A DNA stretch of 59,735 nucleotides from a virus (IMGVR_UViG_3300024999_000115:1-59735); one strand, 5' to 3'. Counted from the first letter of the stretch, positions 3,708 to 52,781 are shown. The notes: generated by a model from the sequence alone, not told the origin. Made by a program: numbers and translations.

Positions 3708-3713
3708 ATTGTT

Positions 3714-4325: not shown

Positions 4326-4336
4326 TCTCTAAAAGT

Positions 4337-5134: not shown

Positions 5135-5147
5135 GACTTTTGTTTTT

Positions 5148-5612: not shown

Positions 5613-5616
5613 GCAA

Positions 5617-8612: not shown

Positions 8613-8613
8613 A

Positions 8614-10886: not shown

Positions 10887-10927
10887 TTTGATAATTTATT
10901 AATTAATACTCAAGAGAATTTTTTAAA

Positions 10928-10959
10928 GAAAAAGGGCAGACAGAAGCCCGTCTGCCCTT
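10928..10959 (-). terminator. Intrinsic terminator after the major capsid gene
   Basis: AAGGGCAGAC-n8-GTCTGCCCTT perfect stem plus a U tract on the minus strand. Confidence 0.75.
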
Positions 10960-10981
10960 AACCTACCTACTTCGTATTCAT

Positions 10982-24600: not shown

Positions 24601-27554
24601 TCAGCGCATTTTTCAATTACATATACCAAACTTCTGATTTGGGATTCAATGCCGAAAAACTCATTCGTGACTATAAATTAATCAATAACGGTGAAATTAC
24701 GCCTGAATTAGAGGAAAAGTTTAAGAAACTTGCAAATGATTTTAAAGAAGTTCAGGAAAAACTGGCAGCCGAACAACTGAAGGTTAAAGAACTGGAAGAA
24801 CAGGCCGCCGTTGATGCTATTCGAAACTCAATTGAACGTCAGAACAGAAAGAAAGCAAAGGCTTCAGACAAAATCAGGGAAAAAACTGATAAGCTGGTTG
24901 CATTAATTGATTTAGGTAAACTCAACCGGCCCGGAATATTCTCAGCGGCTACTCCCGGTTCACTTGCTTGGGATTTGGGCCTTGAAACAGTAAAAACAGC
25001 GGTAAAAGCTACCGGAAGGACTATTGAAGCAATTGCGAAAGGTTGGGAGGCAATCAAATCAACCGATTGGTATAAAGAATTGGATGCACCAAAACAAAGA
25101 CAGGCCCGAAATGCTTATTTTGACTTCTTCACATCGCAGGATGACAAAAAAGACAAGAAAGAAAAGGAAATACCTACTTATCAATTAACCAAAAACGGGC
25201 TTAAAATTCCTCACGCTGTTATCCGCGACTTAGTAGAGCAAGGAATGGGAAATATTGACGACTTGACACAGGCCGTTTATGACATTATTGTTGAAGATTT
25301 CCCCGAAATAACCATGAGAGAGGTCAGGGATGCTATCACTGGTTATGGTTCAACAATGCAACAGAATCAGGAAGAAATTGAGAAGGAAATTCGCAAGATG
25401 AAATTTTTTGGACGGGTTCTTTCAGGTCTTGAAGATGTGGCCGAAGGTGAACGACCAAAGAAATCAGGGTTACAACGCGACAAACCAGACCCCGACCAAA
25501 GAGCAGCAAATAAACAATTAAGAGAAGCAATGAAACTTCTCCCTGTTGATGAACAGCGCAGGTTGGACCAGCAGAAAACACAACTTGACACGGCAAAACA
25601 GCGATTAATCAATCAGATCGAAGATTTGCAACGCGAAATTGACAAAGGCGAACTTACGCCAAAGAATGCCCGGACAATGCAGGAAGATGATGAACTTCGC
25701 CAACTCAGGGCCGCCAGAGATGCAAAAAAGGCTGAACACGCAGCATTATTTAATGATGAGGAATTTCTTAATAAGAAACGGATAGAACTTTCAAAAAAAG
25801 CAGTAAACAGGCGTATTGCTGAACTTGAAAAACGTATTGCCGATGGTGATTTTGCACCGAAAAAGCGAAAAGAGGTAATTGCTGACACCGAACTTATCCG
25901 GTTACGTGCAGAGAAACTTCGCATTCAGGAAGAATACAAAAAGGAAATGTTCAAAGCCAAACTCAGAAACCGGACACAGGCCGAAAAGGTTAAAGATGGT
26001 ATTTGGGATGCTTGGGGAATTACCAGGGCTTTACGTGCAACCGGTGAATTTTCATTTGTTGGCATTCAGGGATTGATTAATACAATTGCTCACCCGATTC
26101 AGGCTAAACAGGCTTTTAAAAACTCAATGAGATTCTTAACAAGCCAACGCAAAGCAGATGAATGGATGAACACCTTGAAATCACAGGACTATTATCAGAT
26201 GCTAAAAGAATCAAAACTTGCAATCACAGAACCAAACGCTGAACTTACTGCAAGGGAAGAACTCTTTTACTCAGGATGGACTGATATGATTTGGAATAAT
26301 GTTGGGAAGGTTTTAGGAAAAGATGCCGATTCGTGGATGGATTACAACCCACTCAGGGCCATTGAACGCGCAGCCGTTGGTTATCTCGATACTCAAAGGG
26401 TATTAAGATACATGGACGGTGTTGAAATGCTTAAAGAGAAAGGAATTGAGTTTACTCAGGCTAACAAACAGGCTTATGTTGAGATGGCCGACGTTATCAA
26501 TACATTCACCGGCAGGGGTTCAATCGGCAGATTAGACCCTGAACTTTTGACTAAAATATTCTTTTCACCCCGGAACTGGGCTTCTGTGATTAAAACAGCC
26601 ACACCATACGCATTTTATCACTTTGGAAAGAAAAGAGCAGGAGCCGAAGCATGGAAACCGTCTGTTGCTCAGAAAATGGCACTTGCTGACTTCTCTAAGT
26701 TTGTTGCACTCACAGCAAGTCTTGTTGCACTGGCCGCAATTGCTTTGAATGGTGACGATGATGATGAAAATAAGGTAGAACTTGACCCGAGAAGTACAGA
26801 TTTCGGCAAAATAAAGATTGGTGACACGAGAATTGACCCGTGGGGCGGCAGGATTCAGCAAATTGTTCTGATTTCACGCCTGTTAAGTGGTGACGTTAAA
26901 AACTCTTACGGTGAAGTAACTCCGATTGGAACTCCTTATAAGTCGCCAACCGGTGCAGAATTATTGCTTCAGATGGCAACAAATAAGCTGGCCCCGTCTG
27001 CTTCGATACTTTACAAGCACTTATCAGCCAAAGTTGATGCTGATGGTAATAAAGTTGACACATTTGGAGAGCCTTATTCGCTTCCGGGAACGCTCAAAGA
27101 GAATTTGTACCCTATCTATTGGGAAACTCTCTCGGAACTTGCCAAAGACGATATTACGGTGCTTGACGGGGTTCTCGCGGTATACGCTTTCTTTGGTGGA
27201 GGTGTGAATGTTTACGACCAGACACCGGAGAAAATGACTGACAGGAAACTGAAAGAGCAAACGCTTATCAAAACTCAGTTCAATGAGAAGATTTCAACCG
27301 GTTACAAGCTGACAAAAGAGGAAGAAGCGAAATACAATACAGCAATTGTTTCATCCAGATTAAAACAGCAATATGTAGTCTTGAAAACTCGCGCTACCCG
27401 TTACGAAAAAGAAGGAAACGAGAAAGCAGCGGAAAGATTGCGCCAACTGGTTGAAGAATCCAAACTCAAACTGAATGAAGCCGATAATGACTACAACACA
27501 ATGCAAAAAGAAAGTGACAGGCTGAAACAAATCATTAAACCGGATGAAGATTAA
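15630..27554 (+). CDS. Giant internal virion / large polyvalent protein (LPD1- and LPD23-like domains, zincin-like motifs)
   Basis: 3974 aa; FGFRGGEFGNW...AHEWFHALD...YWASPHEMAARAFE; ATGWERG..KWKYE; HEIQHLIQ...GEVEARNVQRR; HEAILHKG; hydrophobic segments near both ends. Confidence 0.75.
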   Translation: MEELTGIKGFLQKAVEKEGKTYDDNKANELLKAYNNDYDKLISDIAVRSGFTPEEVEPFKKRAYETFNIQPYQPDTPEQAVDYGPFDKATVEKYPQAKQNFERWQKENTPPKALVSTPEQEFLAPEAKKPVEQTFTQPYLSFEKDKHPYDLPTKSLPKSQFDVDYMNSRDDIQKGLTKEQQAKVISENIPTQTRVEEPEDVDFAKSMLTQIDDLIKAVKIPESSPLDVYEKNYGVYAGGVDLGDNQRNIASTTKATLEKAKDYYEAVANGDANAASKFWGGLKTIDLENTLTLGIKGMANNVDIYQAAKNYTAGKATPEEENLLIAKSMLDEIQSIAQKDRAISVGTGLGEMAPWLAQFAVTGGLGTGVAKATTSVLGKSLASKVAGRLVGSAAQTAAQVPMMVQGTAERMTDRYVVGEDGQLVQASEGEGFGEALLRTYANNYLENVSERLVGDAADKLARKGVGLFLKSKTFGKTPVADLVNWTRKNPYMKLTNRTLGLNTPLSENIEEAFTGLTQPFVTEDNWKGVKEGVGEYFTGENLYRTFLTTAAMGATMGGAQFPFQVYNVSQSEQGRKLVEEGFDEKAHGLFYGAATAETVEEREKYFTDLVKLTGLNKKEMNPVMHYYQTVLSQIENGIDPRRQPEIIQPEVSPETVVDPKIREENKVKTERQIQIDQKIKEVQDDEGNVTTVEVDGQKWYVKNSQDLGKPGWVIFIKNGTETKAVKADKLTNWTKQTPEEVKTDIANEDAFLEAEKQRHEAEIAKAANKGIVVGAEVENEFGTGVVTDISKEGVITAQDEEGKISTSTLDETAPVIEKPETEPGAVNIDELSSEDAFLELSKTDPKKAELVLRDDIDEAKATIAELNKSKKGKGREERATILESISKIQTEIDYLENKYFNNEKSTTTTGKTKQAGGSTTSQGENQAQTKTEVAKEQVLTPEVPEIVNNYKNNPEKLTENLGAPSVNQQIINSENDESLQKLSTSVNENEKSLPKLSEQSAEKIFDRLLKDEAGTDDYGIHGLIFDWNGSRYDEENDEIVFDETRSGTGTETSSKKEFIDYIISGQAEKEIPSAKDYIKQLKAIITEDTPAPVTTPELTEEQKPEVAKSINPNQPAIDKLKAEITGLQGDIKRKEKEINDRNGLFGDVASTPTDLFGQQGFDTANAKKVIEGYKAEISRKQSEIDKLTAAGETAAKEVQGQKELVIPETPDQLPDTGEKVEPELYSIKLMSKNNKQTGIYLYSTIIKIGDKYHFGESVKTSNPITKSDVNVNDLKIGREISEEFYEANGIKKVEKPVSEDKKEETPGEVQSPEKVEEQQIENPVEEITTENELEVIDKIESEQTVETEQEEDVLDDNESGETLEKLQDFGEKIGAARKDLAQRGYKMTPNSIPGWARKFNIGQFHGENTWTITVPQGTYFKTLGKGFKTKEEAHEALPLIAVSLNHRVYMNKDGKWSIFRKWSSGKQWEIKGGFETRDDAMKYMAENAVDIITKRSPVIERPHLDRIKRNRKDWRGGKNVTPEQFLEKFGFRGGEFGNWLASDERQSVLNMAYDAFMDMSEILGISPRALSMKGELSIGFGSRGHGLQGAAAHYEKERAVINLTRINGAGSLAHEWFHALDNYLAKLDGKSSSTRQEDGTFKQEERKFAYFSHGESTYPKTKVRNELLAVFKEIMNEINTREVVKDYDIPRIEKQIQSAKEDFDGRIAEIRDKGYRAITRTRDYGQKKKPATPEQLKKFDELVEKIRNGEIGEDKWHPSAKSRMKGKWMYDTEKEISDLVTQITGAAPNLGYGGNDNTGFLYSAINRIKRSELELSKAKAEGQYQTRIKSLFKSESESIDVSRSGSYWASPHEMAARAFEAFLEDETLRTGESQYLVYGARNIFYAMMGVKPYPEGQERVNIDNAFRKLFDTIQEKEEDGKAVLFRLAEEEKDNSETKSQNIRLSEYEKYENNISEASETKPYNNRLNRRSAVQQEVGNWDETRRKEFPRYESKVKQLLSKYFNDKQYLTAEEVDDIAFIYWEFSSLSYQGSESFREYDVTAMRSVINQFNKFNKNYPDLSLTHNDLKKNGYYPINSDPRFRILGETGAANLDKAEREERLKNANIEGKNSDMKPDPRGGVYNSPEYRLANKVQSILSERGINKNFTISETDFGNSMYFTVYGENTNEPKSKIRISDHSVSNKDRIFGEQHESSNSDPNRIADDIELSMHPERYDKIKTGVRYYSKWNNQWITEPVENGYAWVKSRDTQATESMLNGLNPETARVVSKTFLRESKSGNKIYDAVIERRTEVGEEPIYKYERKAEYATTPKAEEATTRLDNLAIAREMETDGKDEKSIKLATGWERGAKDNKWKYEVPDIELNFTFDEAVKNLLNETLTLSDVVNDTELFKAYPELKNTKIQFYERKAFGSTGGTANSAENTIRIVLETREREIPELGGGRRYIAIFPYDDASLKSVLSHEIQHLIQGFEGFARGGNRETVLDSIIKDRIRELQKALEVENLTQEQKEDVEKKVYRQYPERYRAYQQISGEVEARNVQRRIALTPEQRRESLLAETQDVATKDQIFLSDGLNASLEAELEVKTDPKLDISDKAQPDVKDRKNALNSLEALVKQFGVPISVIHSSEIGDEIGLAAKRKKGTPVAFYYNGTAYIISDKVTSVSDVKQSYLHEAILHKGLDLLFEAGPVTVLGKAYNTKNELLDEVYNRLSPELISEIAKEYVEDYKAGQEFTPKQQREIAEEALAKLNELEIVPSRLEVFMDSLWKFIKKLVGFSSKQFTRTELHKMLADHRKQVQKIARGGISVSSDKKLNGALDFFADPNFRFRSRNPETNRFLDEWEAKKKLKAEKKVQTPPVTPPKPPVKKDATPEPEQKGGKIVDKTIVTKRTYEGDFGDAIDRELEKKGLTRETQNQKEAEQIGLTIIEMEGLEGALNRVRSGEIGGAPAGAIWHEKLKDIDSKMNAETNPEMYDLLAKEYADITEEMGNVATLAGQFSAFFNYIYQTSDLGFNAEKLIRDYKLINNGEITPELEEKFKKLANDFKEVQEKLAAEQLKVKELEEQAAVDAIRNSIERQNRKKAKASDKIREKTDKLVALIDLGKLNRPGIFSAATPGSLAWDLGLETVKTAVKATGRTIEAIAKGWEAIKSTDWYKELDAPKQRQARNAYFDFFTSQDDKKDKKEKEIPTYQLTKNGLKIPHAVIRDLVEQGMGNIDDLTQAVYDIIVEDFPEITMREVRDAITGYGSTMQQNQEEIEKEIRKMKFFGRVLSGLEDVAEGERPKKSGLQRDKPDPDQRAANKQLREAMKLLPVDEQRRLDQQKTQLDTAKQRLINQIEDLQREIDKGELTPKNARTMQEDDELRQLRAARDAKKAEHAALFNDEEFLNKKRIELSKKAVNRRIAELEKRIADGDFAPKKRKEVIADTELIRLRAEKLRIQEEYKKEMFKAKLRNRTQAEKVKDGIWDAWGITRALRATGEFSFVGIQGLINTIAHPIQAKQAFKNSMRFLTSQRKADEWMNTLKSQDYYQMLKESKLAITEPNAELTAREELFYSGWTDMIWNNVGKVLGKDADSWMDYNPLRAIERAAVGYLDTQRVLRYMDGVEMLKEKGIEFTQANKQAYVEMADVINTFTGRGSIGRLDPELLTKIFFSPRNWASVIKTATPYAFYHFGKKRAGAEAWKPSVAQKMALADFSKFVALTASLVALAAIALNGDDDDENKVELDPRSTDFGKIKIGDTRIDPWGGRIQQIVLISRLLSGDVKNSYGEVTPIGTPYKSPTGAELLLQMATNKLAPSASILYKHLSAKVDADGNKVDTFGEPYSLPGTLKENLYPIYWETLSELAKDDITVLDGVLAVYAFFGGGVNVYDQTPEKMTDRKLKEQTLIKTQFNEKISTGYKLTKEEEAKYNTAIVSSRLKQQYVVLKTRATRYEKEGNEKAAERLRQLVEESKLKLNEADNDYNTMQKESDRLKQIIKPDED

Positions 27555-34282: not shown

Positions 34283-34540
34283 CTTTGTGAAGCAATTATT
34301 AACAATAGATAGGAAATGTCATACTCTTATCCCGCTTGCCGGTGATTTAATCCGGCTTATTAGCGAATCGTGGGAGTAAGTATATTTTACGTAAGTTATT
34401 TTTTATTTTGGCTAAATACAAGTTTATAGAATAATTTCAATGCTATTATATCAAAGTTTTACCTTTTATTGCCGTCATAAGTTAATAGTTTTATAATTAA
34501 ATAATTACAGCGGCTTAATACATATAACCGTTAAGGGCAA

Positions 34541-34843
34541 TTATAGATGACGCTCCCAAAAATGAAGCCTACGCACCCAAAATGCAGAACACGAATCACC
34601 ATTAGTAAATTCTACATTTTCGCCTTTGATAATGTATTTTTCAAACTGCATCGGTTCTAATCCGTCCTTAATAGCTGTATCAATCATTATTTTGGCTTTC
34701 CAATTGTATTTTAGCCACTCCCCACGCTTGAATTTGTTATGGTTTTCAAACATCCCATTGTTGATTTGGAACTGAATAACTGCCCTTAACAACGCATAAA
34801 AAATATGCCTTTCGTGTGGGAAAATTGAAGTTTTGTTTTTCAT
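34541..34843 (-). CDS. Cassette 1 hypothetical protein
   Basis: Likely start MKNKTSIF inside the loop of attC-1; bracketed by GTTAAGGGCA / TGCCCTTAAC. Confidence 0.6.
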   Translation of the reverse strand: MKNKTSIFPHERHIFYALLRAVIQFQINNGMFENHNKFKRGEWLKYNWKAKIMIDTAIKDGLEPMQFEKYIIKGENVEFTNGDSCSAFWVRRLHFWERHL

Positions 34844-34914
34844 ATCTAATTCTATTTTAAGTTGATAATGTTGTATTTCAAATACGGCACATTTCTTATG
34901 CGCAGCCGTTACCA
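34784..34914 (+). repeat. attC-like site 1 (131 bp)
   Basis: CCTTAAC AA CGCATAAAAAATATGCC ... GGCACATTTCTTATGCG CAGCC GTTACCA. Confidence 0.8.
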
Positions 34915-34926
34915 ACGAGCACTACT

Positions 34927-35331
34927 TTAGTACTTCTTACCGTGCTTATGTGGTCTTAGAGCGTTGTATCTCATTTTGGCTTTTATATGCTTCTCTAAGT
35001 TTACGCCCTTGAATGCTGCTAAGTCCATTACTCGAATCATAATATCTGCAAGTTCATCCTCAAAAGTGTCTTTAACCCTATTTTCAAATTGCTCTTTGAA
35101 AAAATTGTCATCATTAAAAGTATGTCCGTAATTCGGGTCTGCCATACCATCAATAAACCATTTCTGTTCTTCAACGCAATTAGAATAGTATTTGTCTTTT
35201 CTATCGCATTCAAGAGCTTCGCTTACTTCACTATGTACAAGCGCAAGCATTTCACCAATGTTTTTTTCAGAATCATAAAAGCCTTTAGCTTTGTTGTTCT
35301 CGTGTATCTGTTTTGAAAGTTCGTTTATCAT
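34927..35331 (-). CDS. Cassette 2: MazG-like NTP pyrophosphohydrolase
   Basis: LALVHSEVSEALE...EDELADIMIRVMD...KMRYNALR..KHGKKY. Confidence 0.85.
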   Translation of the reverse strand: MINELSKQIHENNKAKGFYDSEKNIGEMLALVHSEVSEALECDRKDKYYSNCVEEQKWFIDGMADPNYGHTFNDDNFFKEQFENRVKDTFEDELADIMIRVMDLAAFKGVNLEKHIKAKMRYNALRPHKHGKKY

Positions 35332-35374
35332 TATTTCTATTTATTAAAGTTTCTACTAAATTGCCCGTGCCAGT

Positions 35375-35428
35375 TGGTAACACGGGCTAAAACCGCATTA
35401 AAACGACGGTTTAGCCCCATCGTTACCG
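35375..35428 (+). repeat. attC-like site 2 (54 bp)
   Basis: TGGTAAC AC GGGCTAAAACCG ... CGGTTTAGCCC CATC GTTACCG; left arm has one extra base, as expected for an extrahelical base. Confidence 0.85.
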
Positions 35429-35584
35429 TGCATTTAAAACCTCAGAAAGTGTTTAAGATTCTGAAGTTTTTGCATCGGTTTTAAACGTCCGCTTCGCCAC
35501 GGTAACATGGTACATAGCGCATTTTGTCGGAGCATTTAATGAACGTCAGAGCTTAATAAGTAAAAACAAAAAAAGCCCTCCCGC

Positions 35585-35755
35585 TTACAACTTTATCAAG
35601 TTGTTAATGAAATCGCATAGCGGTTGTTCCCATTTCTTAGGCAGCTTTTGAACACCTGTAACAGCTTTAATTAAAGTCGAATCAGGCATTCCAAGTTGCT
35701 TTTCTATTCCACGAATGGAAAGAAAATCTTTGTTTTTGCGTAACCAGTCAATCAT
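35585..35755 (-). CDS. Small HTH protein (last gene of the operon inside attC-3)
   Basis: 56 aa, below the track cut-off: MIDWLRKNKDFLSIRGIEKQLGMPDSTLIKAVTGVQKLPKKW...; ATG overlaps the upstream TGA. Confidence 0.7.
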   Translation of the reverse strand: MIDWLRKNKDFLSIRGIEKQLGMPDSTLIKAVTGVQKLPKKWEQPLCDFINNLIKL

Positions 35756-35946
35756 AACAAATTTTCATCTATTCTTCTAAACACATTAATTGCCTGCTCT
35801 TTTGTGATAAAATCAAAAGAATGACAATTGCCTTTTTTTGGTTTTTTCCATTCTTTTGATGAATACAGATATACTCCCCCAATTTCATTAAATACAACGA
35901 TTGATGAATCTTTTAAAACTGCTGTTTTATCGTCAATAAATGTCAT
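35752..35946 (-). CDS. Small hypothetical protein inside attC-3
   Basis: 64 aa, ATGA-coupled to both neighbours. Confidence 0.65.
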   Translation of the reverse strand: MTFIDDKTAVLKDSSIVVFNEIGGVYLYSSKEWKKPKKGNCHSFDFITKEQAINVFRRIDENLL

Positions 35947-36134
35947 TGTTCTGTTAAATTAAGTTTTGATAAAGCAGTGAATTTCTTAATAAAGTTATTT
36001 CTTGTTGCATCTATTGAATTACCATTATGCGCGCCTGTTTCATTAATTGAATCGCTAACTAATTTAGTAAATGATTCTGTCCCTTTTTCTCGAAGGAATT
36101 TTGATAGTTGTTCTTTTAGTTCTATTGCTTTCAT
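35943..36134 (-). CDS. Small hypothetical protein inside attC-3
   Basis: 63 aa, ATGA-coupled. Confidence 0.65.
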   Translation of the reverse strand: MKAIELKEQLSKFLREKGTESFTKLVSDSINETGAHNGNSIDATRNNFIKKFTALSKLNLTEQ

Positions 36135-36301
36135 AATTCAGTTTTTATTATTTCGTTAAAGCTAATCTTAACTTCTTTCCCGTAACATTTCTGAACGTGT
36201 GATTTTGCTGCTCTTTCGCTTACTGCGTAAGTCACAATAGTTCTTTCTTTTTCTGAACCTTCAATTTTGTAACTCAACCAAAAATGATACTGTGTTTTCA
36301 T
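36131..36301 (-). CDS. Small hypothetical protein inside attC-3
   Basis: Likely start MKTQYHFWL at 36301, just downstream of a consensus promoter. Confidence 0.65.
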   Translation of the reverse strand: MKTQYHFWLSYKIEGSEKERTIVTYAVSERAAKSHVQKCYGKEVKISFNEIIKTEL

Positions 36302-36312
36302 TGTTTTAAATT

Positions 36313-36351
36313 TATATCCAAATTTACGTATAATAAATAATATATCCAAAT
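36313..36351 (-). promoter_or_regulatory. Consensus Bacteroidota housekeeping promoter with overlapping direct repeats
   Basis: Minus strand TTTG-N20-TAAATTTG; TATATCCAAAT at 36313-36323 and 36341-36351 overlaps both elements. Confidence 0.75.
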
Positions 36352-36458
36352 ATTAAGATAAAATAATTTAAACCCCTCCCTCTTTTTTTTGTTTTTAGTC
36401 AGTGCAACTAATCGAAGTCAGCATTAAACGCGCCATGTACCCGGTCGTTAACAAGCAT

Positions 36459-36815
36459 TTAAGAAAGGAACTCAACACTATCAACTTTTAACGAGAAACA
36501 TTTGTCGGTTTGCTCATAAACATAGCCGATAAATTGACAAGCTCCTGATTTTCCGTTGCGTGGTTTATATGCTTGGCACATTTTGCCGCAACCACCTTCT
36601 GATTTTTCGCCAACCTCGTTAAAATGTTTGCAGAAAAAATAACCGCTATCAGTTTCACGTTTTGCCAAAAATATGTCCATTTCTTCAATATGGTTTTCAA
36701 TCATGTATTGCAAATGATTTTCAATAGTGTAACAAGTATCATCATCTTGACGAAAATAAAAACACTTGTTAACACTATGTTTATGCAATTGGGGGTTTTG
36801 TGCTAATTCGTTCAT
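36459..36815 (-). CDS. Cassette 4: Cys-rich hypothetical protein
   Basis: FFCKHF..CGKMC..Y.PRNGKSGAC; starts inside attC-4. Confidence 0.7.
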   Translation of the reverse strand: MNELAQNPQLHKHSVNKCFYFRQDDDTCYTIENHLQYMIENHIEEMDIFLAKRETDSGYFFCKHFNEVGEKSEGGCGKMCQAYKPRNGKSGACQFIGYVYEQTDKCFSLKVDSVEFLS

Positions 36816-36896
36816 AATCTATATTTATTAAGTTTTTACTATTTTGATGGTGCAGTTGTTTCTAATCCCCAACTGCACAAACATTTACCGTTATGT
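36767..36896 (+). repeat. attC-like site 4 (130 bp)
   Basis: TGTTAAC ACT ATGTTTATGCAATTGGGG ... CCCCAACTGCACAAACAT TTACC GTTATGT. Confidence 0.85.
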
Positions 36897-36902
36897 GTAA
36901 TG

Positions 36903-37211
36903 TTAAGAACGCCACACGACAGCCGCCAAACTTGGGCTTGATTGTTCGACAAATAATTTAAATGCGTCATATTTTACCGTTCCTTCTGTTTTAAAAGGTT
37001 CGGTTTCGTTTACAAGGCGAATAAATGAATGTGATTTAATTTCTATTTCCTTAAAAATAGCCACTAATGCAGTATCTGATTTTGCACTTCGCATTTTTGC
37101 GATTTGTTCAACTTCTAAAACCATTTGTCGAAAAGCATTTACTAAACGCCATTCAATTACTTTATCTTGGTTTTCATTTAAAAACTGATTAAAATACTCT
37201 TTTGCTTTCAT
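36903..37211 (-). CDS. Cassette 5 hypothetical protein
   Basis: 102 aa; bracketed by GTTATGTGTA / TACACATAAC. Confidence 0.7.
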   Translation of the reverse strand: MKAKEYFNQFLNENQDKVIEWRLVNAFRQMVLEVEQIAKMRSAKSDTALVAIFKEIEIKSHSFIRLVNETEPFKTEGTVKYDAFKLFVEQSSPSLAAVVWRS

Positions 37212-37248
37212 ATTATTGATTATTAATTTGTTGAAAATAAAACACTAC

Positions 37249-37324
37249 ACATAACACAGCTCTAATCGCAATACTACAACGCACAAATCAACGCTTCGTA
37301 CTGCGTTTAGTGCTGTCGTTCATG
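37249..37324 (+). repeat. attC-like site 5 (76 bp)
   Basis: ACATAAC ACAGCTCTAATCGCAATAC ... GTACTGCGTTTAGTGCTGT C GTTCATG. Confidence 0.75.
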
Positions 37325-37618
37325 CTAAAAATACTCAACAGCATCGGGATTAAAATCAACCATTATTTTTTCATCAGTATATATTTCTTCAAATACATCT
37401 TTCATATCAGGGTCATTTTCATTATAGCACATTGCAATACTTCCGATTAACTGTTTCAAATCATCCATTTCTCTTTGAATTTCATCGCAATCAATCATTA
37501 ATGTTCATTTTTCGGAATACTCTTTTTCATATTCCTTAATAGCATTGTTTAACTTGTTTGCTAATCTATCGTAAGCATAGCAAGTCTTTTTCCGTAGGCT
37601 ATTAAAATTTACTTCCAT
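37325..37618 (-). pseudogene. Cassette 6 gene interrupted by one in-frame TGA
   Basis: MEVNFNSLRKKTC...YSEK(TGA 37505-37507)TLMIDCDEIQ...AVEYF-TAG, all in one frame. Confidence 0.55.
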
Positions 37619-37664
37619 TTTGATTATATTTTTAGTTTAACAATCTGATTAATAAAGCACGAAA

Positions 37665-37759
37665 CCATAACATTTGCTATATGTAACACGGCTCGAAAGT
37701 CCGTACTACTTTGAAAATGTCTGCTATGCCGTGCTACACATAGCAAAGTACCGGTAAGC
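37665..37759 (+). repeat. attC-like site 6 (95 bp; right core degenerate, GGT)
   Basis: CCATAAC A TTTGCTATATGTAACACGGC ... GCCGTGCTACACATAGCAAA GTACC GGTAAGC. Confidence 0.75.
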
Positions 37760-37767
37760 AATAAAAA

Positions 37768-38049
37768 TTACTTAGCTATTGGTTTATAATTGTGAAATTC
37801 CGCTATGTTCGGATATTTCAGTTGTAATCGTTCTAATGTTGAATTGTAAGCGGGTATAGCTTTCTTCTTTAAAAACTCCTCGTTACAAGGCACTAATTTA
37901 GTTCTTGTGCTTAATTCCGATAAGTAGTGTAAATCATTCCACATTCTAAGGAGTTTTTCAACGTGGCTATTTCTGTAAACCCGCTTACTTGCTCCGTAGT
38001 ATTGTTTTAGTCCTTTTGTTTTAAATTCGTGAATGGATATTCGTTCCAT
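37768..38049 (-). CDS. Cassette 7 hypothetical protein
   Basis: 93 aa; bracketed by TAAGCAATAAAAATTAC / GTAATTTTTACAGCTTATAAC. Confidence 0.7.
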   Translation of the reverse strand: MERISIHEFKTKGLKQYYGASKRVYRNSHVEKLLRMWNDLHYLSELSTRTKLVPCNEEFLKKKAIPAYNSTLERLQLKYPNIAEFHNYKPIAK

Positions 38050-38068
38050 AAGTCGTAATTTTTACAGC

Positions 38069-38166
38069 TTATAACAGCACCTAACAAAAATGGCTGCTAC
38101 AAGCATTTGTTTTTAATTTAGAAGTTCTTACAAGCAACCACTTCTGTTAGTTGCAAAACGTTATAA
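38069..38166 (+). repeat. attC-like site 7 (98 bp)
   Basis: TTATAAC A GCACCTAACAAAAATGGCTGC ... GCAACCACTTCTGTTAGTTGC AAAAC GTTATAA. Confidence 0.8.
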
Positions 38167-38178
38167 AACAGTTTGCGA

Positions 38179-38415
38179 TTAAGGCAGACTGTCATAACAT
38201 TCTTTACATAAATTATCGGATTGCAGTTCTTTTTCTTCATTGCACATTTCGCAAACCGATTTTACAACAGCAGGTTTAATGCAGTTGCTCTGCTCGTCGG
38301 TAGTTTCTTTGCCCTCGCACTGTTTTATCAAAATATACATCCCAATCCTCGATTTTGGTATATACCCTTTATCGAAACTTTCATTATTCCATTCAATAAA
38401 ATCACGTAATATCAT
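38179..38415 (-). CDS. Hypothetical protein with a C-terminal CxxC..CxxC finger; reads through a half attC site
   Basis: SNCIKPAVVKSVC is encoded by the left arm of half-site 8 (TTACAAC 38262-38268). Confidence 0.6.
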   Translation of the reverse strand: MILRDFIEWNNESFDKGYIPKSRIGMYILIKQCEGKETTDEQSNCIKPAVVKSVCEMCNEEKELQSDNLCKECYDSLP

Positions 38416-40055: not shown

Positions 40056-40799
40056 TTAACAAACTGAAGCACGTTTCCACGGATTTTCAATGCCGCGTTC
40101 TTTAAGAAGTTCGCGTACTTTCCCCCTGTACTTTTTAGCTATTTCAGAGTAGAATATCCGGTTATCTTCTCCTTCTTTCTGTGCTAATTGTTTAAGTTCG
40201 TTTACTTTTTCTGCTCCGATTTCCCGGATTAGTTTCATTTCGAATTTTTCAGGCTCACCGCTTCTTCGGTAGTTGCATTTATTGCACTGTGGCCTTGCGT
40301 TATTTTCGTGGAATCGGGTTGTTTTAAACCCCCTGCGCTGCCAGTGTCCACATTCAGCCTCTTTAATTGGCTTAATATTACCACAAGTATAACAAGTACA
40401 AACCTGTCCGGCTGTTGTTTCAAAAGAATGGAATAACCGAATGTATCTTGAAAAATACTGGTCGGCTCTCTGCATTGCCTGAGATTTTGTTCCGAGAACT
40501 ATTCTAACCTGCTTATCGTGCGTAATGGGAATTTTAATGTGCTTTTCCCGTTTCTCTTTTTTAGCGTAAAATCCGGCGTTTTTAAGCACTTTTTTGTTTT
40601 CCGCTATCTTGTGTGCTGAATCTTGTTTTCGTTGAAAGTCGGCAAGGTTCTGGCAGCGTGGGCAGCGTTTTGGCTTTATTGTCGAATTAGGAACCCACCG
40701 GAAGTCATTTTTGCAGTCCAAGCAGGTTATTTTTATTCCCTCAATGATTGGCGGCTTCGTTGTCATGTTCGGTTTCTTTTTGTTTTTCTCTTTCGACAA
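40056..40799 (-). CDS. ninG: NinG/Rap-family endonuclease with N-terminal Zn finger
   Basis: FSRYIRL, CYTCG, ECGHW.RR...TRFHENNARPQCNKCN. Confidence 0.8.
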   Translation of the reverse strand: MSKEKNKKKPNMTTKPPIIEGIKITCLDCKNDFRWVPNSTIKPKRCPRCQNLADFQRKQDSAHKIAENKKVLKNAGFYAKKEKREKHIKIPITHDKQVRIVLGTKSQAMQRADQYFSRYIRLFHSFETTAGQVCTCYTCGNIKPIKEAECGHWQRRGFKTTRFHENNARPQCNKCNYRRSGEPEKFEMKLIREIGAEKVNELKQLAQKEGEDNRIFYSEIAKKYRGKVRELLKERGIENPWKRASVC

Positions 40800-43478: not shown

Positions 43479-45575
43479 TTACTTTTTGTAAAATGCCTGA
43501 AACCTAATGACATCTGGATATTCAGGAGATTTCAGCAATCCATCCCCTTTACCTTGTAGTGCTTCTGCTCCACTTTCGTCGATTACTACTTTTGAATCTA
43601 CTTCTTTTGGAACCCTGAAACACAACTGAACAGGGAAGTTTACTTTCGCATCCCCGGTAATTACCTTTGTAGAGGCCCGTTGTGTGGCGGCAATAATTCT
43701 GAACCCCGATGAACGGCCTTTCTGAAGCAATATCTTCAAGTTTTCTTCCAGGCTTTTATCAACAGAAGTTACCTCACGTTTTGTTTTGGCAAGTCCGTTT
43801 TTATAGGCTCCAACTATTACATTCTGGTAGTTTTTCAGTTCGTTTCCACTTCTTGCCTGAGAAGTGGCATCGGCAAATTCATCGAAGATTACAAGCGTTT
43901 TTCGTGTCTGTCCCGATTTTGCCAGCTTGTTCATTTCCTCCACCAGCAAAGCCATTTCAAATTCAATTTCTTCAATGTCGTTGAATACCGAAATATTACC
44001 GTGTTTGGAATATCCTGAAAATTCAAACTTCGGGTCGAAAATCACAATATTTTCAACTCCGGCTAATATTGCGTATTCGATTGTAGAAATAATTGAAACA
44101 GATTTCCCGGAACCAGTGGCCCCACAAATAAGCATATGAGGTGTTGATTGATTGTTTAAATCCCAAACAACCGGACGCTGGAAGTTATCAAGCCCCAAAG
44201 GAATACGAAGCCCTGAAAGATATTTTTCATCCCAAAACAAATCAGCATCCCTTTTTCGTGCGCTTTCGACCGCCAAATATGATTTTCCTTCATAAACAAA
44301 AAGGTCTTTCATTATCCTGATACTTGAAACATCGAGCGCGTTCGCAATATCAAGTTTGTGCCTATGAAGTGTTGCCAGCGGGATTCCGGCTGTTACTTCA
44401 ATTAAAAACGTGGTACTTGAATAACCATTGAAAATATGCTGTACCTTAACGTTAATTCCAAATGTTCTTAAAACGTGTTCGATTTTTTCCTCATTGTTCA
44501 TGTCTTTATTGCTTAGGTCGTATTGGATAAATTCCGATGCGTGTTTTCTAAATTTCTTAATTACCGATGGGCTAATTGCTGATAACGATGAATCTTTTAC
44601 CTTACGAAGCCGGTTTTTAATCAGTTCTTTTTTGTTTTCAGGAACGTTGATAAAATCATCAACTTCGGCAATCATGGTTTGCGCCCAAAACTCATGTATT
44701 TCTGCTGTGTCCGTTAGGTTGTCACTTTCGTTAATCAGGTAGATGTAATCCGGGTTACTTACTGCTTCAATAACCCTTTTCGTGGGTTCATAAAGCATGG
44801 CTTCATATAACCTTCTGACATCTTCGTTTAGTTCGATTTTAGAACAAGAAAGCTGTGGTGTTTTGTCCCTGTTTTGTGAAAACTTGTTTTCGATAAACCA
44901 GACTTCATCGACTTTTTCTCCGGTTGCTGTTTCGTAGCCCAAAACATAAGTTATTGCCTGTTTTCCAGATGAAAACGCAAGTTCTTTTTCATCTGTAAAT
45001 GACCGTTTTGATTTATGATCGACGATCACGAGTTTGCCTTCACTGGTTCTCCCAATTAAGTCAATTCTCATGTGAAAAGGAAGCGGAATATCAACGCCGT
45101 TTACATTAAGCCATTCATCGAGATAAAGTTCAATCGAAACTATTTCGACAATATCCGAAGTGTAAACAGAAATTTCAGATAGAAAATTCAACAATAACAT
45201 CGAAGTTGTTTTGCAAGCAACACTTATTGATTCTTCAACCGTGGGCGTTGTTTTCTGTAACTTCCACGTATTTGCCGGAACTTCCTCTATAACCTGGAAT
45301 GCTCTTGTTTCAAGTGCTGCAATATCAAGCGTAATGCCATCTTTAAGGCATTCAAAATACAACTGAAGTGCCGCGTGATATGCCTGTCCCGCGATTGTGG
45401 TGGCCGACATTTTCCCCGGCATACAATAAACGTATCTCATTTCAAATTCCTTCTCGTTGCGGCAAAAGGACATTATTTTTGAGTACGAAAGGCTGTCAAT
45501 GATGTAATTACTGAGTAATTCTTCAATCTGGTCGCGGCCTTGATCCCTGAATTTATGGTAAGGTTTCTGGTACAT
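43479..45575 (-). CDS. PD-(D/E)XK nuclease fused to FtsK-like ATPase
   Basis: LSYSKI..C, RIDLIG..IVDHKS; PHMLICGATGSGKS, IFDEFAD, GRSSG..IIAATQR, GAEALQGKGDGL. Confidence 0.85.
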   Translation of the reverse strand: MYQKPYHKFRDQGRDQIEELLSNYIIDSLSYSKIMSFCRNEKEFEMRYVYCMPGKMSATTIAGQAYHAALQLYFECLKDGITLDIAALETRAFQVIEEVPANTWKLQKTTPTVEESISVACKTTSMLLLNFLSEISVYTSDIVEIVSIELYLDEWLNVNGVDIPLPFHMRIDLIGRTSEGKLVIVDHKSKRSFTDEKELAFSSGKQAITYVLGYETATGEKVDEVWFIENKFSQNRDKTPQLSCSKIELNEDVRRLYEAMLYEPTKRVIEAVSNPDYIYLINESDNLTDTAEIHEFWAQTMIAEVDDFINVPENKKELIKNRLRKVKDSSLSAISPSVIKKFRKHASEFIQYDLSNKDMNNEEKIEHVLRTFGINVKVQHIFNGYSSTTFLIEVTAGIPLATLHRHKLDIANALDVSSIRIMKDLFVYEGKSYLAVESARKRDADLFWDEKYLSGLRIPLGLDNFQRPVVWDLNNQSTPHMLICGATGSGKSVSIISTIEYAILAGVENIVIFDPKFEFSGYSKHGNISVFNDIEEIEFEMALLVEEMNKLAKSGQTRKTLVIFDEFADATSQARSGNELKNYQNVIVGAYKNGLAKTKREVTSVDKSLEENLKILLQKGRSSGFRIIAATQRASTKVITGDAKVNFPVQLCFRVPKEVDSKVVIDESGAEALQGKGDGLLKSPEYPDVIRFQAFYKK

Positions 45576-47124: not shown

Positions 47125-48057
47125 TTAGTTGTCATAAGTATTTTGTTTAAAATGTTCGATTGATTTGAAAATTTGATATACTACCTGTGGAACTATTGCG
47201 TTTCCAAAGGCTTTTATGCTTTCGTTTCTCCACTTAGGAAAGGTAATTCCGTCCAATCGGTTGGAAAACCCATCATTTCCGCTACAAATTGGGGATTGAG
47301 TTGGGAATTGCTCGAAGTTTGAACCCCTATAAAGTTCGCTAATTGCCCTTGATGCGCTCTTTCTCCTGTTGCAATCTTGTCTTTCATTTTCTGAATATCG
47401 TTCGTCCCCTTGTAGTCTCTTGTTGCAGGTGTCGGTAACAGCTTCACTAAGCGAGCCAATCCCACACTCCCGTCCGTTCCGTTCTGGTTTATTTTCCGTG
47501 GCAATCCGGCAGTCTGTTTGAATGTGTCGTTCTTCCCTATTATCGCTCCGGTTGTTGCATCGCTTGTTACCGGAGTAGGCCACAAACCAAACTCGTTCTC
47601 GTCTGTGAGGGGCGTTGACGCTGCAAGCTGGAAGTAAAAACGGGATTGTTTCGTAGCCTTCAGCTTCCATTTCAGCTTGCACTTCGTCGAATACCAGTCC
47701 ATCGTTCCAATTAATAATGCCGGAAACGTTTTCGCCAACAATCCAGGTCGGTTGAATCTCTCGAATTGCTCTAAGCATTTCCGGCCAGAGGTGGCGTTCA
47801 TCCTCTTTGCCAAGTCGTTTTCCGGCTTGTGAGTATGGCTGACATGGAAATCCTCCCGTAAGGATGTCAATGTTTCCTCTGTGAATAGTGAAGTCTGTTT
47901 GTGTAATATCTCCATAACTTATAGCATTTGGCCAATAATAATTCAGTACTTTTTGCCCGAATGGGTTCCACTCACAATGAAAAATATTATTCCACCCCAT
48001 CCACTCGGCTGCTAAGTCAAATCCTCCAATACCGGAGAATAAACTACCATGATTCAT
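47125..48057 (-). CDS. C5 cytosine DNA methyltransferase (main subunit)
   Basis: SLFSGIGG (I), GGFPCQPYS (IV), ENV (VI), PHRRERVW (VIII), KAFGNAIVPQV (X). Confidence 0.92.
   Translation of the reverse strand: MNHGSLFSGIGGFDLAAEWMGWNNIFHCEWNPFGQKVLNYYWPNAISYGDITQTDFTIHRGNIDILTGGFPCQPYSQAGKRLGKEDERHLWPEMLRAIREIQPTWIVGENVSGIINWNDGLVFDEVQAEMEAEGYETIPFLLPACSVNAPHRRERVWFVAYSGNKRCNNRSDNREERHIQTDCRIATENKPERNGRECGIGSLSEAVTDTCNKRLQGDERYSENERQDCNRRKSASRAISELYRGSNFEQFPTQSPICSGNDGFSNRLDGITFPKWRNESIKAFGNAIVPQVVYQIFKSIEHFKQNTYDN
47214..47915 (-). CDS. Nested alternative-frame ORF; probable second methyltransferase subunit (TRD plus motif IX)
   Basis: 233 aa wholly inside the MTase gene; LWPTP/LLPTP repeats and QLNPQFVAEMMGFPTDWT. 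Confidence 0.65.
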   Translation of the reverse strand: MEILHKQTSLFTEETLTSLREDFHVSHTHKPENDLAKRMNATSGRKCLEQFERFNRPGLLAKTFPALLIGTMDWYSTKCKLKWKLKATKQSRFYFQLAASTPLTDENEFGLWPTPVTSDATTGAIIGKNDTFKQTAGLPRKINQNGTDGSVGLARLVKLLPTPATRDYKGTNDIQKMKDKIATGERAHQGQLANFIGVQTSSNSQLNPQFVAEMMGFPTDWTELPFLSGETKA

Positions 48058-48296: not shown

Positions 48297-48426
48297 TGCC
48301 CCGTATCGTGGGGCCGACGGCTTACGCTGCAAGTCTTACCTGCGGTGTAAACATTGAAATTGATTTGCCTTTTATGGCTGAACTTCTCCGCTACCCTACC
48401 TCTGCCTGTCAAAACCAAACACCCCC
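48297..48426 (-). ncRNA. ssrA: tmRNA coding piece of a permuted two-piece gene
   Basis: Starts GGGGGTGTTTGGTTTTGAC; ATAAAA then tag GKSISMFTPQVRLAA-TAA (48369-48322); GCCCC/GGGGC hairpin after the stop; 3' end approximate. Confidence 0.85.
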
Positions 48427-48537
48427 GAATTATAAACCTTGCACACTAACCACCGTGGGTTACATAGTTGATTCAGTAGGTTTATAAACAACCGTACTAA
48501 CGCGACGGGTTAGCGACAACCGGCGATTGTTTCTTTA

Positions 48538-48713
48538 AAAGCAACACTCTCCTTTGTTCCTATTGCACACCCCGCCCCGAAATGCTGTTTCCGTCCCCTG
48601 TCAGTGGGTATCTCTATTAATCTGTCCTGACTGTCAAGCGTTCGCCGTTCCGCTTTGCTACTTCGGTCGTTTTTTAAGTGAACAAAAATTGCAATATCAA
48701 CAAGTGTTGCTTT
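48538..48713 (-). ncRNA. Unidentified rod-like structured RNA inside the tmRNA intervening segment
   Basis: Nested stems AAAGCAACACT/AGTGTTGCTTT, TATTGCA/TGCAATA, CCGAAGT/ATTTCGG, GTCAG/CTGAC. Confidence 0.5.
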
Positions 48714-48734
48714 CCCTTCCTTCCTTTGTGGATG

Positions 48735-48795
48735 TGGAGGTGGCGGGGATCGAACCCGCGTCCAAACAGTTTCAAATAGTTTCAACGAAATTCGT
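48735..48795 (-). ncRNA. ssrA: tmRNA acceptor piece of the permuted gene
   Basis: ...CTATTTGAAACTGTTTGGAC GCGGG TTCGATC CCCGC CACCTCC A; pairs with the coding piece giving G3-U70; CCA not encoded; 5' end approximate. Confidence 0.85.
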
Positions 48796-51239: not shown

Positions 51240-51597
51240 GGAAACGACAAAGAATGAACGAGTAAAAAGAGTGATTGAGTTTAAGAATATCACACAGGTA
51301 GAACTTGCTAACGTACTTGGGATAAAAAAACAACTGGTTCAAAACTGGATAAGCAACTCTCAGCCGGTTCCCGACAAGTATATTTTACTCCTCATAGAGA
51401 AATATACCGACATAGATGCCCGTTGGCTGGCTACCGGGGCCGGAAGTATCGACGGTAGTATTGCATCCACCCAGGAGCAAATAAACCGCATTAAGAAGCC
51501 TCTGTTGGATATTATCGAAATGAAAGACCTAATAATAGCCGATAAAGAAAGAATGTTAGTAATGAAGGACGATATTATAAAGCTGATGAAAAAATGA
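51238..51597 (+). CDS. CI-like HTH repressor 2
   Basis: ITQVELANVLGIKKQLVQNWI...IDARWLATGAG; stop overlaps the integrase start. Confidence 0.8.
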   Translation: METTKNERVKRVIEFKNITQVELANVLGIKKQLVQNWISNSQPVPDKYILLLIEKYTDIDARWLATGAGSIDGSIASTQEQINRIKKPLLDIIEMKDLIIADKERMLVMKDDIIKLMKK

Positions 51598-52781
51598 AGT
51601 TCGAATTATTTGATTCAAGCAAACTTTCCCCTGTTGTTGGCATAATCAGAATGAGCAGAAAGAACCACAAGATTTTCCTGAAGTATTACTGTGGTTTCTC
51701 CGTCCGGCCCGACCAGTGGAACGAAAAGACTGAACGGGTGCGCGAAGTTTACGGCATACCTTTTAAAGACTACAACAATATAATAGATAAAATAGAAGCT
51801 GCGGTAAAACTTGAATTTAAAAACCGGGATTACTTTTCGATCACATCCGATTCACTCAGGCAGTTAATTGATGCAGCATTAAAAAGAAAAGTATCGTCCG
51901 GGGCCGGAAACAATACGGGTTTCATGGACTACCTGCAAAATTATATTGATACCTCTGGCGTTAAATCAGCAAAATCATTTAAAACCACAAAGGGCAAACT
52001 TCCGGCAAACATATCCTGGTATGACTTCGATTATTCGTGGTATCTGAAATTTGTTGATAAAATGGAAGCAAAAGGTCATGCTAAAAACTACATCGGGCGG
52101 CAAATAAACAACATCAAAATCATTTTAACCCGCGCATTTAAAGAAGGAAAACACCAAAACACCGAATATCTGAAATTCGCTGTACTCCGTGAAGATGTTT
52201 ATAATATCTACCTGTCGGAAGCTGAACTGATAAAAATGTACAATCTTCCTCTGGATGGATACAACGCCCATGTCCGCGATTTATTCATGCTTGGAGCATG
52301 GACGGGAATGAGAGTAAGCAATTACCTCAATATTGATTCTGATTTGAATGTTGACCTTGAAAAGAACATTATCACCGCCATTGTAAACAAAAACGGGCCA
52401 CGGGTACGGATTCCTATTCACTGGATTATTCGGGAGATTATCGAAAAGAACGGCGGCAAACTTCCAAAATCCATCAGCGAACAGAAATTGAACAAACAGA
52501 TTAAGGTTGTCGGGCGGCTGGCTGGTATTACCGAGAAAGTAATAACCGTTAAAACCATCGGCGGGAAGCGAACCGAAATAGTGAAAGACAAGTGCGATAT
52601 GATTTCTTCACACACCTGCCGCCGGAGCCTTGCTACTAACCTTTATTTAAAAGATGTTCCGCTGAAGTATATAATGAGTATCACAGGTCACAAAACGGAA
52701 GCACAAGCCCTGAAATACATCAAATCCGGCCTTGACGAAATTTACGATAAAGTTGCTGAGTTGGATTTCTGGAAGAAGTAA
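51594..52781 (+). CDS. int: Tyrosine recombinase (phage integrase, Bacteroidota type)
   Basis: TGMRVS (R), HTCRRS (HxxR), ITGH (H), LKYIK (Y); N-terminal arm-binding and SAM-like regions. Confidence 0.92.
   Translation: MKFELFDSSKLSPVVGIIRMSRKNHKIFLKYYCGFSVRPDQWNEKTERVREVYGIPFKDYNNIIDKIEAAVKLEFKNRDYFSITSDSLRQLIDAALKRKVSSGAGNNTGFMDYLQNYIDTSGVKSAKSFKTTKGKLPANISWYDFDYSWYLKFVDKMEAKGHAKNYIGRQINNIKIILTRAFKEGKHQNTEYLKFAVLREDVYNIYLSEAELIKMYNLPLDGYNAHVRDLFMLGAWTGMRVSNYLNIDSDLNVDLEKNIITAIVNKNGPRVRIPIHWIIREIIEKNGGKLPKSISEQKLNKQIKVVGRLAGITEKVITVKTIGGKRTEIVKDKCDMISSHTCRRSLATNLYLKDVPLKYIMSITGHKTEAQALKYIKSGLDEIYDKVAELDFWKK

Follow-up and report, generated by a model that had tools for sequence, protein, structure and literature searches.

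A phage array of attC-like sites without an integrase, probably served in trans by an integron-like system of Bacteroidota

How could a phage hold what looks like an integron cassette array while encoding no integron integrase to maintain it? The question is raised by IMGVR_UViG_3300024999_000115, a virus record in IMG/VR from a groundwater assembly, whose 59,735 bases, estimated to be 99% complete, were analyzed whole and are here called the window. Between 34.5 and 38.3 kb, the window possesses seven imperfect AAC...GTT hairpins, sites B–H, and two half sites, distributed among small genes. The explanation that we favor, at a probability of about 0.7, is that this phage array consists of attC-like sites lacking an integrase (a CALIN, in integron terminology), that it derives from a poorly described integron-like system of Bacteroidota, and that it is recombined in trans by an enzyme of the host cell. 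That the array is built of cassettes is well supported, and this part of the reading is very probably correct.

An earlier note on this DNA, prepared from the sequence alone, had described seven palindromes and two half sites between small genes, and had pointed out that the bases following each GTT are complementary to the bases preceding the next AAC, and not to those of the same site. Both descriptions were borne out. All twelve junction words quoted in that note lay at the positions claimed, and the flank 3′ of GTT was complementary to the flank 5′ of the next AAC, over 6–16 nt, at seven of the eight window junctions, with a 2-nt register shift between G and H; the flanks of the same site were not complementary. 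Site lengths ranged from 46 to 123 nt, with site D split apart, and every plausible gene in the array region lay on the minus strand. As to the observation that GTT, rather than the full GTTRRRY consensus, is conserved, GTTA was retained in six of the eight right-hand boxes, whereas the bases that follow departed from RRRY. The offset pattern extends to other phage arrays, where at least nine of 12 flank bases were complementary in 17 of 41 consecutive site pairs, as compared to 0.9% of random pairings and one of 59 same-site flanks; the count of 17 is a floor, because the 41 include pairs that skip undetected sites.

The mobile unit is defined by these junctions together with the shared units described below. 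It comprises one hairpin and the adjoining gene, cut in all likelihood at the same triplet of successive sites, and by itself accounts for the offset complementarity; a cut at G/TT on the plus strand equates to AA/C on the folding strand, and in integron terms, taking the plus strand of the window as the top strand, the unit would read TT...gene...AAC-hairpin-G. The bases after each GTT are then part of the neighboring cassette, and they pair with those before that cassette's own AAC. A crossover at G/TT, as the earlier note had proposed, is supported by the offset complementarity and by shared units that end at the triplets (see below), and we take this to be the likely position of cleavage.

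To evaluate the hairpins themselves, an anchored stem score was computed for all 3140 AAC..GTT pairs of the window, and the four top scores all fell within the array. A minimum-free-energy scan of the same pairs, in which the array was not separable from the background, was set aside in favor of this score. A covariance model, R1, was derived from an alignment of 39 sites of a ~124-nt class, drawn from 11 phage records and three bacterial loci. Run with filters off over the whole window, R1 returned at E<0.1 only five array sites on the minus strand, all within 3.4 kb, together with a plus strand echo of site E. The window sites are otherwise diverse in sequence and are alike only in their triplets and in their architecture: (T)AAC, ~3–6 unpaired bases, a stem of ~17–20 bp, a loop of ~70 nt (in the 124-nt class), the returning stem, 0–3 unpaired bases, and GTT(A). 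An asymmetric internal loop, with 0–3 nt on one side and ~3–6 nt on the other, accompanies every site; in the 124-nt class, the two sides count ~1–3 and ~3–5 nt. No relevant Rfam family was matched at the gathering threshold or at E≤5.

The alignment revealed strong pairing constraints. RNAalifold recovered a 17-pair stem with compensatory changes in 16 of the 17 pairs; paired cells made up 91.4% of the 39 sites (AAC/GTT pairs included), against 38–46% when the partners were slid, and double-change cells numbered 192, against 41–63 in the slid controls, a value reached in none of 500 shuffles. AAC and GTT were invariant in all 39 sites. At two fixed columns, G.U pairs were present in 35 and 26 of the 39 sites, which on the opposite strand become C.A mismatches. 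The minus strand folded better at every site tested (site G, for example, at −37.9 versus −27.1 kcal/mol), in line with the earlier note's statement that A-C mismatches on one strand are G-T pairs on the other. Recombination may proceed through a single-stranded DNA intermediate.

The same hairpins recur elsewhere, and similarity to the window starts and stops at their edges. Hairpin families were found at 90–96% identity in at least 14 further phage records, including phages of 429–462 kb. Copies of site G, 93–96% identical, occur in three phages, of 66, 429, and 462 kb, with different genes on both sides, and site G was the only match when 33–40 kb of the window was compared by blastn to the phage collection; site C was 94% identical in the 66-kb phage G001. 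A 21-mer of site E retrieved 12 further IMG/VR phage contigs with unrelated flanks on both sides. The whole 122-nt element, starting from (T)AAC, was shared by 10 or 11 of these (in one, L017, only the right arm was present, and in another, L021, the left arm had diverged), and similarity ended at GTT in all 12. Contigs from four other metagenome runs departed from the window at 34906, 35378 (three runs), 35425/35429, 36770, 36885/36895, 37672 (five contigs), 38082, and 38269; each of these points lies no more than a few bases from an AAC or a GTT. A comparison of relatives, proposed in the earlier note, places the breakpoints at the triplets. One joint, 34166>39317 (run X11), rests on a 21-letter side and was left out, and stretches without contig cover in runs X5, X6, and X11 were left uninterpreted.

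Whole units are shared as well. Phage loci G004 and L016 share one unit at 90.6% identity. It starts at the TAAC of a copy of site E, takes in the hairpin and a 100-aa gene with its stop codon, and closes at the next AAC; outside of it, the two loci are unrelated. A wastewater contig was 99% identical to 34906–35420, which covers the MazG-like cassette and most of site C; its first 24 letters were unlike the window, and its other end is the end of the contig. Segment 37755–38082 was also 99% identical in a wastewater contig, and the last unit was found without its interior in two other metagenomes (joints 38176>38251 and 38180>38249, loose end 38269). Two of the large phages carry dense arrays, with at least eight family sites within 3 kb on one strand, as seen at 2715–5705 in locus L001 (LR756500, 462 kb) and in locus L005 (G002, 429 kb). 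In locus L010 of G001 (7550–9570), a ~35-nt motif stands three times beside sites, and the gene at 7662–7877 lies between copies of a 17-nt direct repeat; the simple cassette model accounts for neither.

The site family is not confined to phages. At E≤0.001, R1 matched 78 of 151 evenly sampled Bacteroidota genomes, many with 5–23 copies, and one of 151 Pseudomonadota genomes, on a single contig. This lone contig, G231:C8, has six R1 hits, for which mis-binning or transfer are both possible. Both arms of site E were present in three bacterial genomes, those of Alkaliflexus, of Mongoliitalea, and a Bacteroidetes metagenome-assembled genome; the degenerate 18-mer used for this search was too loose, with nearly all of its 120 rows due to chance, and only the three both-arm rows were used. 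At the bacterial loci, sites directly follow genes on the opposite strand, in the fashion of classical integrons, and the cassette ends are again complementary. The host arrays carry as cargo a Type ISP enzyme, HamA with a helicase (Hachiman), reverse transcriptases, a Type I methylase, a cation-efflux protein, and a LinB-like nucleotidyltransferase. The last of these, a LinB-like lincosamide nucleotidyltransferase (L185, 231–1001, in G020), is the first cassette after an array-linked recombinase, as is a cation-efflux/HMA protein in G035 the first cassette there; both represent resistance-type cargo in arrays of environmental Bacteroidota.

The orientation of the genes relative to the folding strand distinguishes phage from host arrays. 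Of 99 open reading frames (ORFs) that neighbor sites in phage arrays, 93 share the folding strand, whereas 70 of the 83 beside sites in host arrays are encoded opposite to it. The integron rule, in which an ORF on the top strand is followed by attC, is thus followed by the hosts and departed from by the phages. At 26 of 41 phage sites, as opposed to four of 31 host sites, a reading frame begins with an ATG in the loop, crosses the 3′ arm and GTT, and stays open for 40 or more codons of the cassette. For the site E family, the loop ATG opens an ORF into a different protein in 12 of 13 copies, and ten of these 12 ORFs begin with MN..(Q/L)(N/D/K)PQLHKH(S/I)V; most phage sites of the 124-nt class hold a start codon and ~15 leader codons inside the hairpin. 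The hairpin would therefore also supply a translation start in phages, where it possibly carries a promoter too, and cassette exchange would create in-frame protein fusions, for which classical integrons offer no counterpart. Because the strand bearing the fixed G.T pairs reads as sense in phage arrays but as antisense in host arrays, it goes with the site rather than with the message, which is our main argument for the hairpin acting as DNA.

Which enzyme acts on these sites? Distances between recombinases and hairpins were queried for the matches listed, 150 of 415 for hairpins and 150 of 389 for recombinases. Among these, a Xer/IntI-like recombinase and a hairpin lie no more than 12 kb apart in at least 15 genomes, and no more than 5 kb apart in at least 11 of them, where by our own arithmetic ~1 would be expected by chance. 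The recombinase points into the array in ten of the 15 genomes; in five, the hairpin lies upstream of the recombinase on the same strand, from <1 kb to 6.6 kb away. All ten array-linked recombinases that were scored gave 217–248 bits with NF040815, 196–221 bits with the IntI model (cut-off 265), and 186–204 bits with XerD; the match to the IntI model stops near position 179, before the IntI-specific domain. The closest solved relatives of one of them are archaeal XerA proteins, ahead of VchIntIA. In a phylogenetic tree, 12 other Xer paralogs of the same genomes formed a clade (support 98/99) with nine array-linked proteins outside of it. The array-linked proteins end KSPFDDL-like and have no extra insertion, and the other paralogs end HPR(G/A/T). 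NF040815 was rejected as a marker, as 143 of 151 genomes score with it, other Xer paralogs included; hence, the recombinases were told apart by position and by the tree. A ~250-aa gene directly following the host recombinases was likewise rejected as a conserved partner, as the cargo at this position varies. As judged from sequence, the array-linked recombinases are a distinct group, IntI-like in score and tail, and devoid of the IntI domain. Their position suggests that they recombine the sites.

A further recombinase was observed beside host hairpins. In locus L181 (6743–9036; G013, Alkaliflexus imshenetskii), and likewise in L182 and L184, a 304-aa tyrosine recombinase and an IS91-family Y2 transposase form a multi-copy unit that starts immediately after a hairpin's GTTG. 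The cassette flank expected for this hairpin recurs in L181 2460 nt further on, as if the unit had been inserted at the crossover point.

The earlier note had found no integron integrase with the window array, and we found none. No integrase with the extra domain adjoins the array, and the sole tyrosine recombinase of the phage lies 13 kb away. Its best NCBIfam hits were Xer-type, at 16–30 bits, the IntI model was not among the hits at E≤0.01, and this phage integrase (Int) probably serves prophage integration. Twelve of 13 array-bearing phage records have no tyrosine recombinase; among the recombinase-free records, two are 100% complete (terminal repeats), two are at 92%, and one is at 96%. 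From this, it follows that the phage cassettes would be acted on in trans by an enzyme of the host cell.

Taken together, a model for the array emerges. In Bacteroidota chromosomes, the site family forms integron-like cargo arrays beside a dedicated XerA/IntI-like tyrosine recombinase, and phages would rely on the infected cell's recombinase to excise, insert, and exchange their cassettes, with recombination taking place during infection. As the enzyme, a host XerA/IntI-like recombinase acting in trans is our best guess, at slightly better than even odds. The earlier note had inferred that the phage assembles its accessory region from cassettes shuffled in trans by a host IntI or by its own Int; the array, the exchange at GTT/AAC, and the action in trans are retained here, and both of the enzymes named are not, for reasons given below.

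Several points weigh against the model. The recombinase linkage is drawn from the listed share of matches mentioned above, and as the array-linked recombinases do not possess the IntI-specific domain, the analogy to integrons may fail in mechanism. Extrahelical bases are essential to canonical attC recognition. Folding, by which the earlier note meant to locate them, uncovered one unpaired stem base in the short class (site C and the sites of Polaribacter phage P12002L); the 124-nt class yielded no extrahelical bases and has the fixed G.T pairs in their stead. The aligned sites had been picked beforehand by stem score and are biased toward pairing, although the column-wise covariation and the fixed wobble pairs exceed what such selection gives. 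The F to G junction lacks flank complementarity, and site G ends in GGT. Families of the site E type stand beside many different genes on both sides, which a single crossover explains only if many cassettes carry near-identical sites; Vibrio arrays do have many cassettes with near-identical sites. The metagenome runs are assembled contigs, which report presence and boundaries and not events, circles, or rare junctions. Lastly, the host of the phage is presumed to be a member of Bacteroidota on the basis of the three site E genomes and the distribution of R1 matches.

One alternative holds that the array is an ordinary integron cassette cluster. Its sites would be canonical attC sites, acquired from a classical IntI of the host, extra domain included, which recombines them to this day. 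In favor of it stand the AAC/GTT cores, the offset complementarity, and a bottom strand that folds better, a textbook attC signature, to which the unpaired stem base of the short class may be added. P12002L possesses two short AAC...GTT sites between methylase genes, homologous to site C, with an 11-nt loop identical to that of site C and with stems differing by a compensatory change; attC tools have called sites in this phage, and one was recombined by IntI1 (PMC9892861). The P12002L sites that we located are likely those that were assayed. The distribution of R1 matches runs counter to this alternative, as integrons are common in Pseudomonadota, where R1 matched one genome, and IntegronFinder 2.0 gives only lone integrases and one complete integron for Bacteroidetes (10.1101/2022.02.28.482270). 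No protein in the three Bacteroidota genomes holding site E reaches the IntI cut-off, and the array-adjoining recombinases fall below it, their match ending ahead of the IntI domain; canonical host IntI, named in the earlier note, is thus not sustained as the agent. Given also the G.T pairs of the 124-nt class, which stand where extrahelical bases would be expected, we consider this alternative unlikely: canonical IntI is possible for the short class, and poorly supported for the phylum.

A second alternative, which we regard as improbable, is that the hairpins are regulatory elements of RNA or DNA, such as terminators, processing sites, or PeSL-like combinations of promoter and stem-loop, and that the mosaic arises from homologous recombination at conserved intergenic modules. 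The phage folding strand is indeed the mRNA strand, G.U pairs are typical of RNA, the loops hold a conserved A-rich motif in addition to the start codon, and conservation at site G extends beyond the hairpin as far as the following gene's start codon; in T4-type phages, the shuffling of PeSLs supplies a precedent. However, transcripts of the host genes would bear the mismatched strand, as the host sites are antisense to 70 of 83 genes. The sites of one array are too dissimilar for homologous exchange, which in any case cannot render flanks complementary across a cassette, and breakpoints fall at the hairpin edges rather than within. The phage's ordinary terminators do not resemble the hairpins either: they combine a GC stem with a T run, as near 10927–10965. 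The word TGCCCTTAAC at 10953 lies inside this ordinary terminator and was set aside as a chance occurrence.

That the phage's own Int, which the earlier note had offered as a possible agent, or another phage enzyme shuffles the cassettes is very unlikely, and in a general role Int is ruled out: it is the sole tyrosine recombinase of a genome that is 99% complete, but it is not IntI by NCBIfam, it is extremely distant from the array-linked family (branch length 7.75), nearly all array-bearing phage records have no such enzyme, and across nine phage genomes compared, no protein family was present in more than three, apart from DNA methylases (seven of nine) and a YopX family (four of nine).

The features of the array are compiled below. 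A relative of the ORF at 35752–35946, within the loop of site D, is present in G001. The right end of the array is a half site located within an ORF.

Table 1. Features of the cassette array and the tyrosine recombinase of the window. Scores are for covariance model R1; folding energies compare the minus strand to the plus strand.
Feature	Position	Strand	Remarks
Left half site	34530..34544	.	GTT (34530-32) and 12-nt flank x, complementary to 34776-34787; 15-nt match, 93%
Cassette ORF, 100 aa	34541..34843	-	No family match; ATG within site B loop; frame crosses hairpin arm and GTT
Site B, 124-nt class attC-like hairpin	34787..34911 (AAC-GTT 34788-34910)	-	85.8 bits; fold -33.3 vs -24.6 kcal/mol
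Cassette ORF, 134 aa, MazG-like nucleotide pyrophosphatase	34927..35331	-	phrog_3301 at 1e-33
Site C, short class	35378..35425 (AAC-GTT 35379-35424)	-	21.2 bits; 94% identity in G001
Empty 78-nt cassette	35426..35503	.	Complementary flanks at both ends
Site D, split	35504..36449	-	Arms 35504-35520 and 36430-36449 pair, one G.T on minus strand
Four overlapping small ORFs inside site D loop	35585-36349	-	ORF prediction
Cassette ORF, 118 aa	36459..36815	-	Begins in site E loop; conserved leader MN..QNPQLHKHSV
Site E, 124-nt class	36770..36893 (AAC-GTT 36771-36892)	-	118.5 bits
Cassette ORF, 102 aa	36903..37211	-	No family match
Site F, hairpin	37253..37320	-	27-nt stem alignment; missed by R1
Two small ORFs, 57 and 37 aa, between sites F and G	37325..37618	-	Cassette without flank complementarity
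Site G	37668..37756 (AAC-GTT 37670-37755)	-	38.2 bits; ends GGT here, GTT in a relative
Cassette ORF, 93 aa	37768..38049	-	17-nt complementary flanks
Site H	38072..38163 (AAC-GTT 38073-38162)	-	42.1 bits; inner AAC..GTT nested at 38083-38148
Last unit and right half site	38160..38268	.	GTT and 16 nt, 70-nt interior, complementary 17 nt, AAC (38266-68)
ORF, 78 aa	38179..38415	-	Spans right half site; N-terminal part from phage backbone
Tyrosine recombinase, the only one of the phage	51594..52781	+	Not IntI; 13 kb from array

Besides its integrase, the phage encodes a terminase, a C5 DNA methylase (47125–48057), a NinG-like gene (40056–40799), and a single 3974-aa ORF (15630–27554, plus strand) situated between a 419-aa ORF and the terminase-like gene, with ~76% DNA identity in the related phage G003. 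Synteny with G003 stops ~340 nt before the left half site (window 34194, G003 47404); the accessory region of G003 is different, and both of its sites are at its contig start. A search for related loci using the flanking DUF6633 protein returned no relative. On the minus strand, positions 43479–45575 encode a 698-aa protein in which a PD-(D/E)XK nuclease domain is fused to an ATPase of the FtsK/HerA type, and positions 48322–48787 match the permuted tmRNA family of Rfam (RF04321, 54.8 bits, gathering score 47) over 466 nt, for a model of 213 positions. This match is odd for a phage, and ARAGORN called no tmRNA.

A broader picture can be sketched tentatively, at a little less than even odds: Bacteroidota and their phages may share a hitherto unrecognized integron-like system of their own, with ~124-nt sites bearing fixed G.T pairs, long complementary cassette ends, and a XerA/IntI-like recombinase family devoid of the IntI domain, from which bacteria would stock defense and resistance cargo, and into which phages of 35–460 kb would plug inverted, self-expressing cassettes in trans, shuffling accessory and counter-defense genes. 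The two parties in the arms race would in this way trade with each other via a single recombination system. If the sites are what they seem, about half of the sampled Bacteroidota genomes hold an integron-like system that current detectors miss and that has a different integrase, and Bacteroidota phages build hypervariable accessory regions using the same sites. This would offer a handle on the origin of phage mosaicism in Bacteroidota, new structure-specific recombination sites and enzymes, and a catalog of small phage genes, likely including counter-defense genes, with precise boundaries.

Integrons are the textbook device for the capture and reshuffling of adaptive genes, and Bacteroidota pass for a phylum that nearly lacks them. 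Integron attC sites and CALINs are the closest known relatives of the array described here. Shared with them are the imperfect AAC...GTT hairpins of which one strand folds better, the complementary cassette ends offset by one site, the arrays without an integrase, the methylases among the cargo, and, in the 124-nt class, a layout in which R box, unpaired spacer, stem, and variable loop succeed one another as in attC. The differences are that flank complementarity here spans 6–16 nt and not a 7-nt R box, that fixed G.T pairs replace extrahelical bases in the 124-nt class, that phage genes lie on the folding strand, often with the start codon in the loop, that the family is confined to Bacteroidota and their phages in the R1 sampling, and that the likely enzyme has no IntI domain. 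Integrase-free attC arrays have been published for phages before: from a screen of 10,705 phage genomes, Qi et al. (2023) described 17 attC clusters without an integrase, and IntI1 recombined five of six phage attC sites tested (PMC9892861). Among those phages is P12002L, which has a Bacteroidota host, methylase cassettes, and the sites homologous to site C. The site class, its spread among Bacteroidota and phages, the non-IntI partner, and the inverted cassettes that start within the site appear undescribed in the texts searched; the full-text literature covered, with subscription journals outside of that coverage, yielded no such Bacteroidota arrays and no start codons within attC loops. Sedentary chromosomal integrons likewise hold defense cargo between sites, as do the host arrays (Type ISP and Type I restriction, HamA with helicase, reverse transcriptases), but those reported are of Vibrio and use canonical IntI, and Bacteroidota are listed among the clades previously found without integrons (10.1101/2024.07.02.601686).

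The PeSLs of T4-type phages also resemble the array, in that the small accessory genes of a plastic region are each framed by a stem-loop carrying expression signals. PeSLs are similar repeats that recombine by homology, and modular shuffling has been proposed for them; the sites here are instead diverse, bounded by fixed triplets, covarying, and flanked by offset complementarity. A third likeness is to Xer-dependent elements. The attP of the CTX phage is a folded single strand on which the host Xer recombinase acts in trans, and the pdif modules of Acinetobacter plasmids are Xer-dependent. The array differs from these in having no 28-bp dif-like core and in its association with recombinases that stand apart from the presumed housekeeping Xer paralogs; what it would share with them is a host tyrosine recombinase of the housekeeping type that acts in trans on the site of a mobile element.

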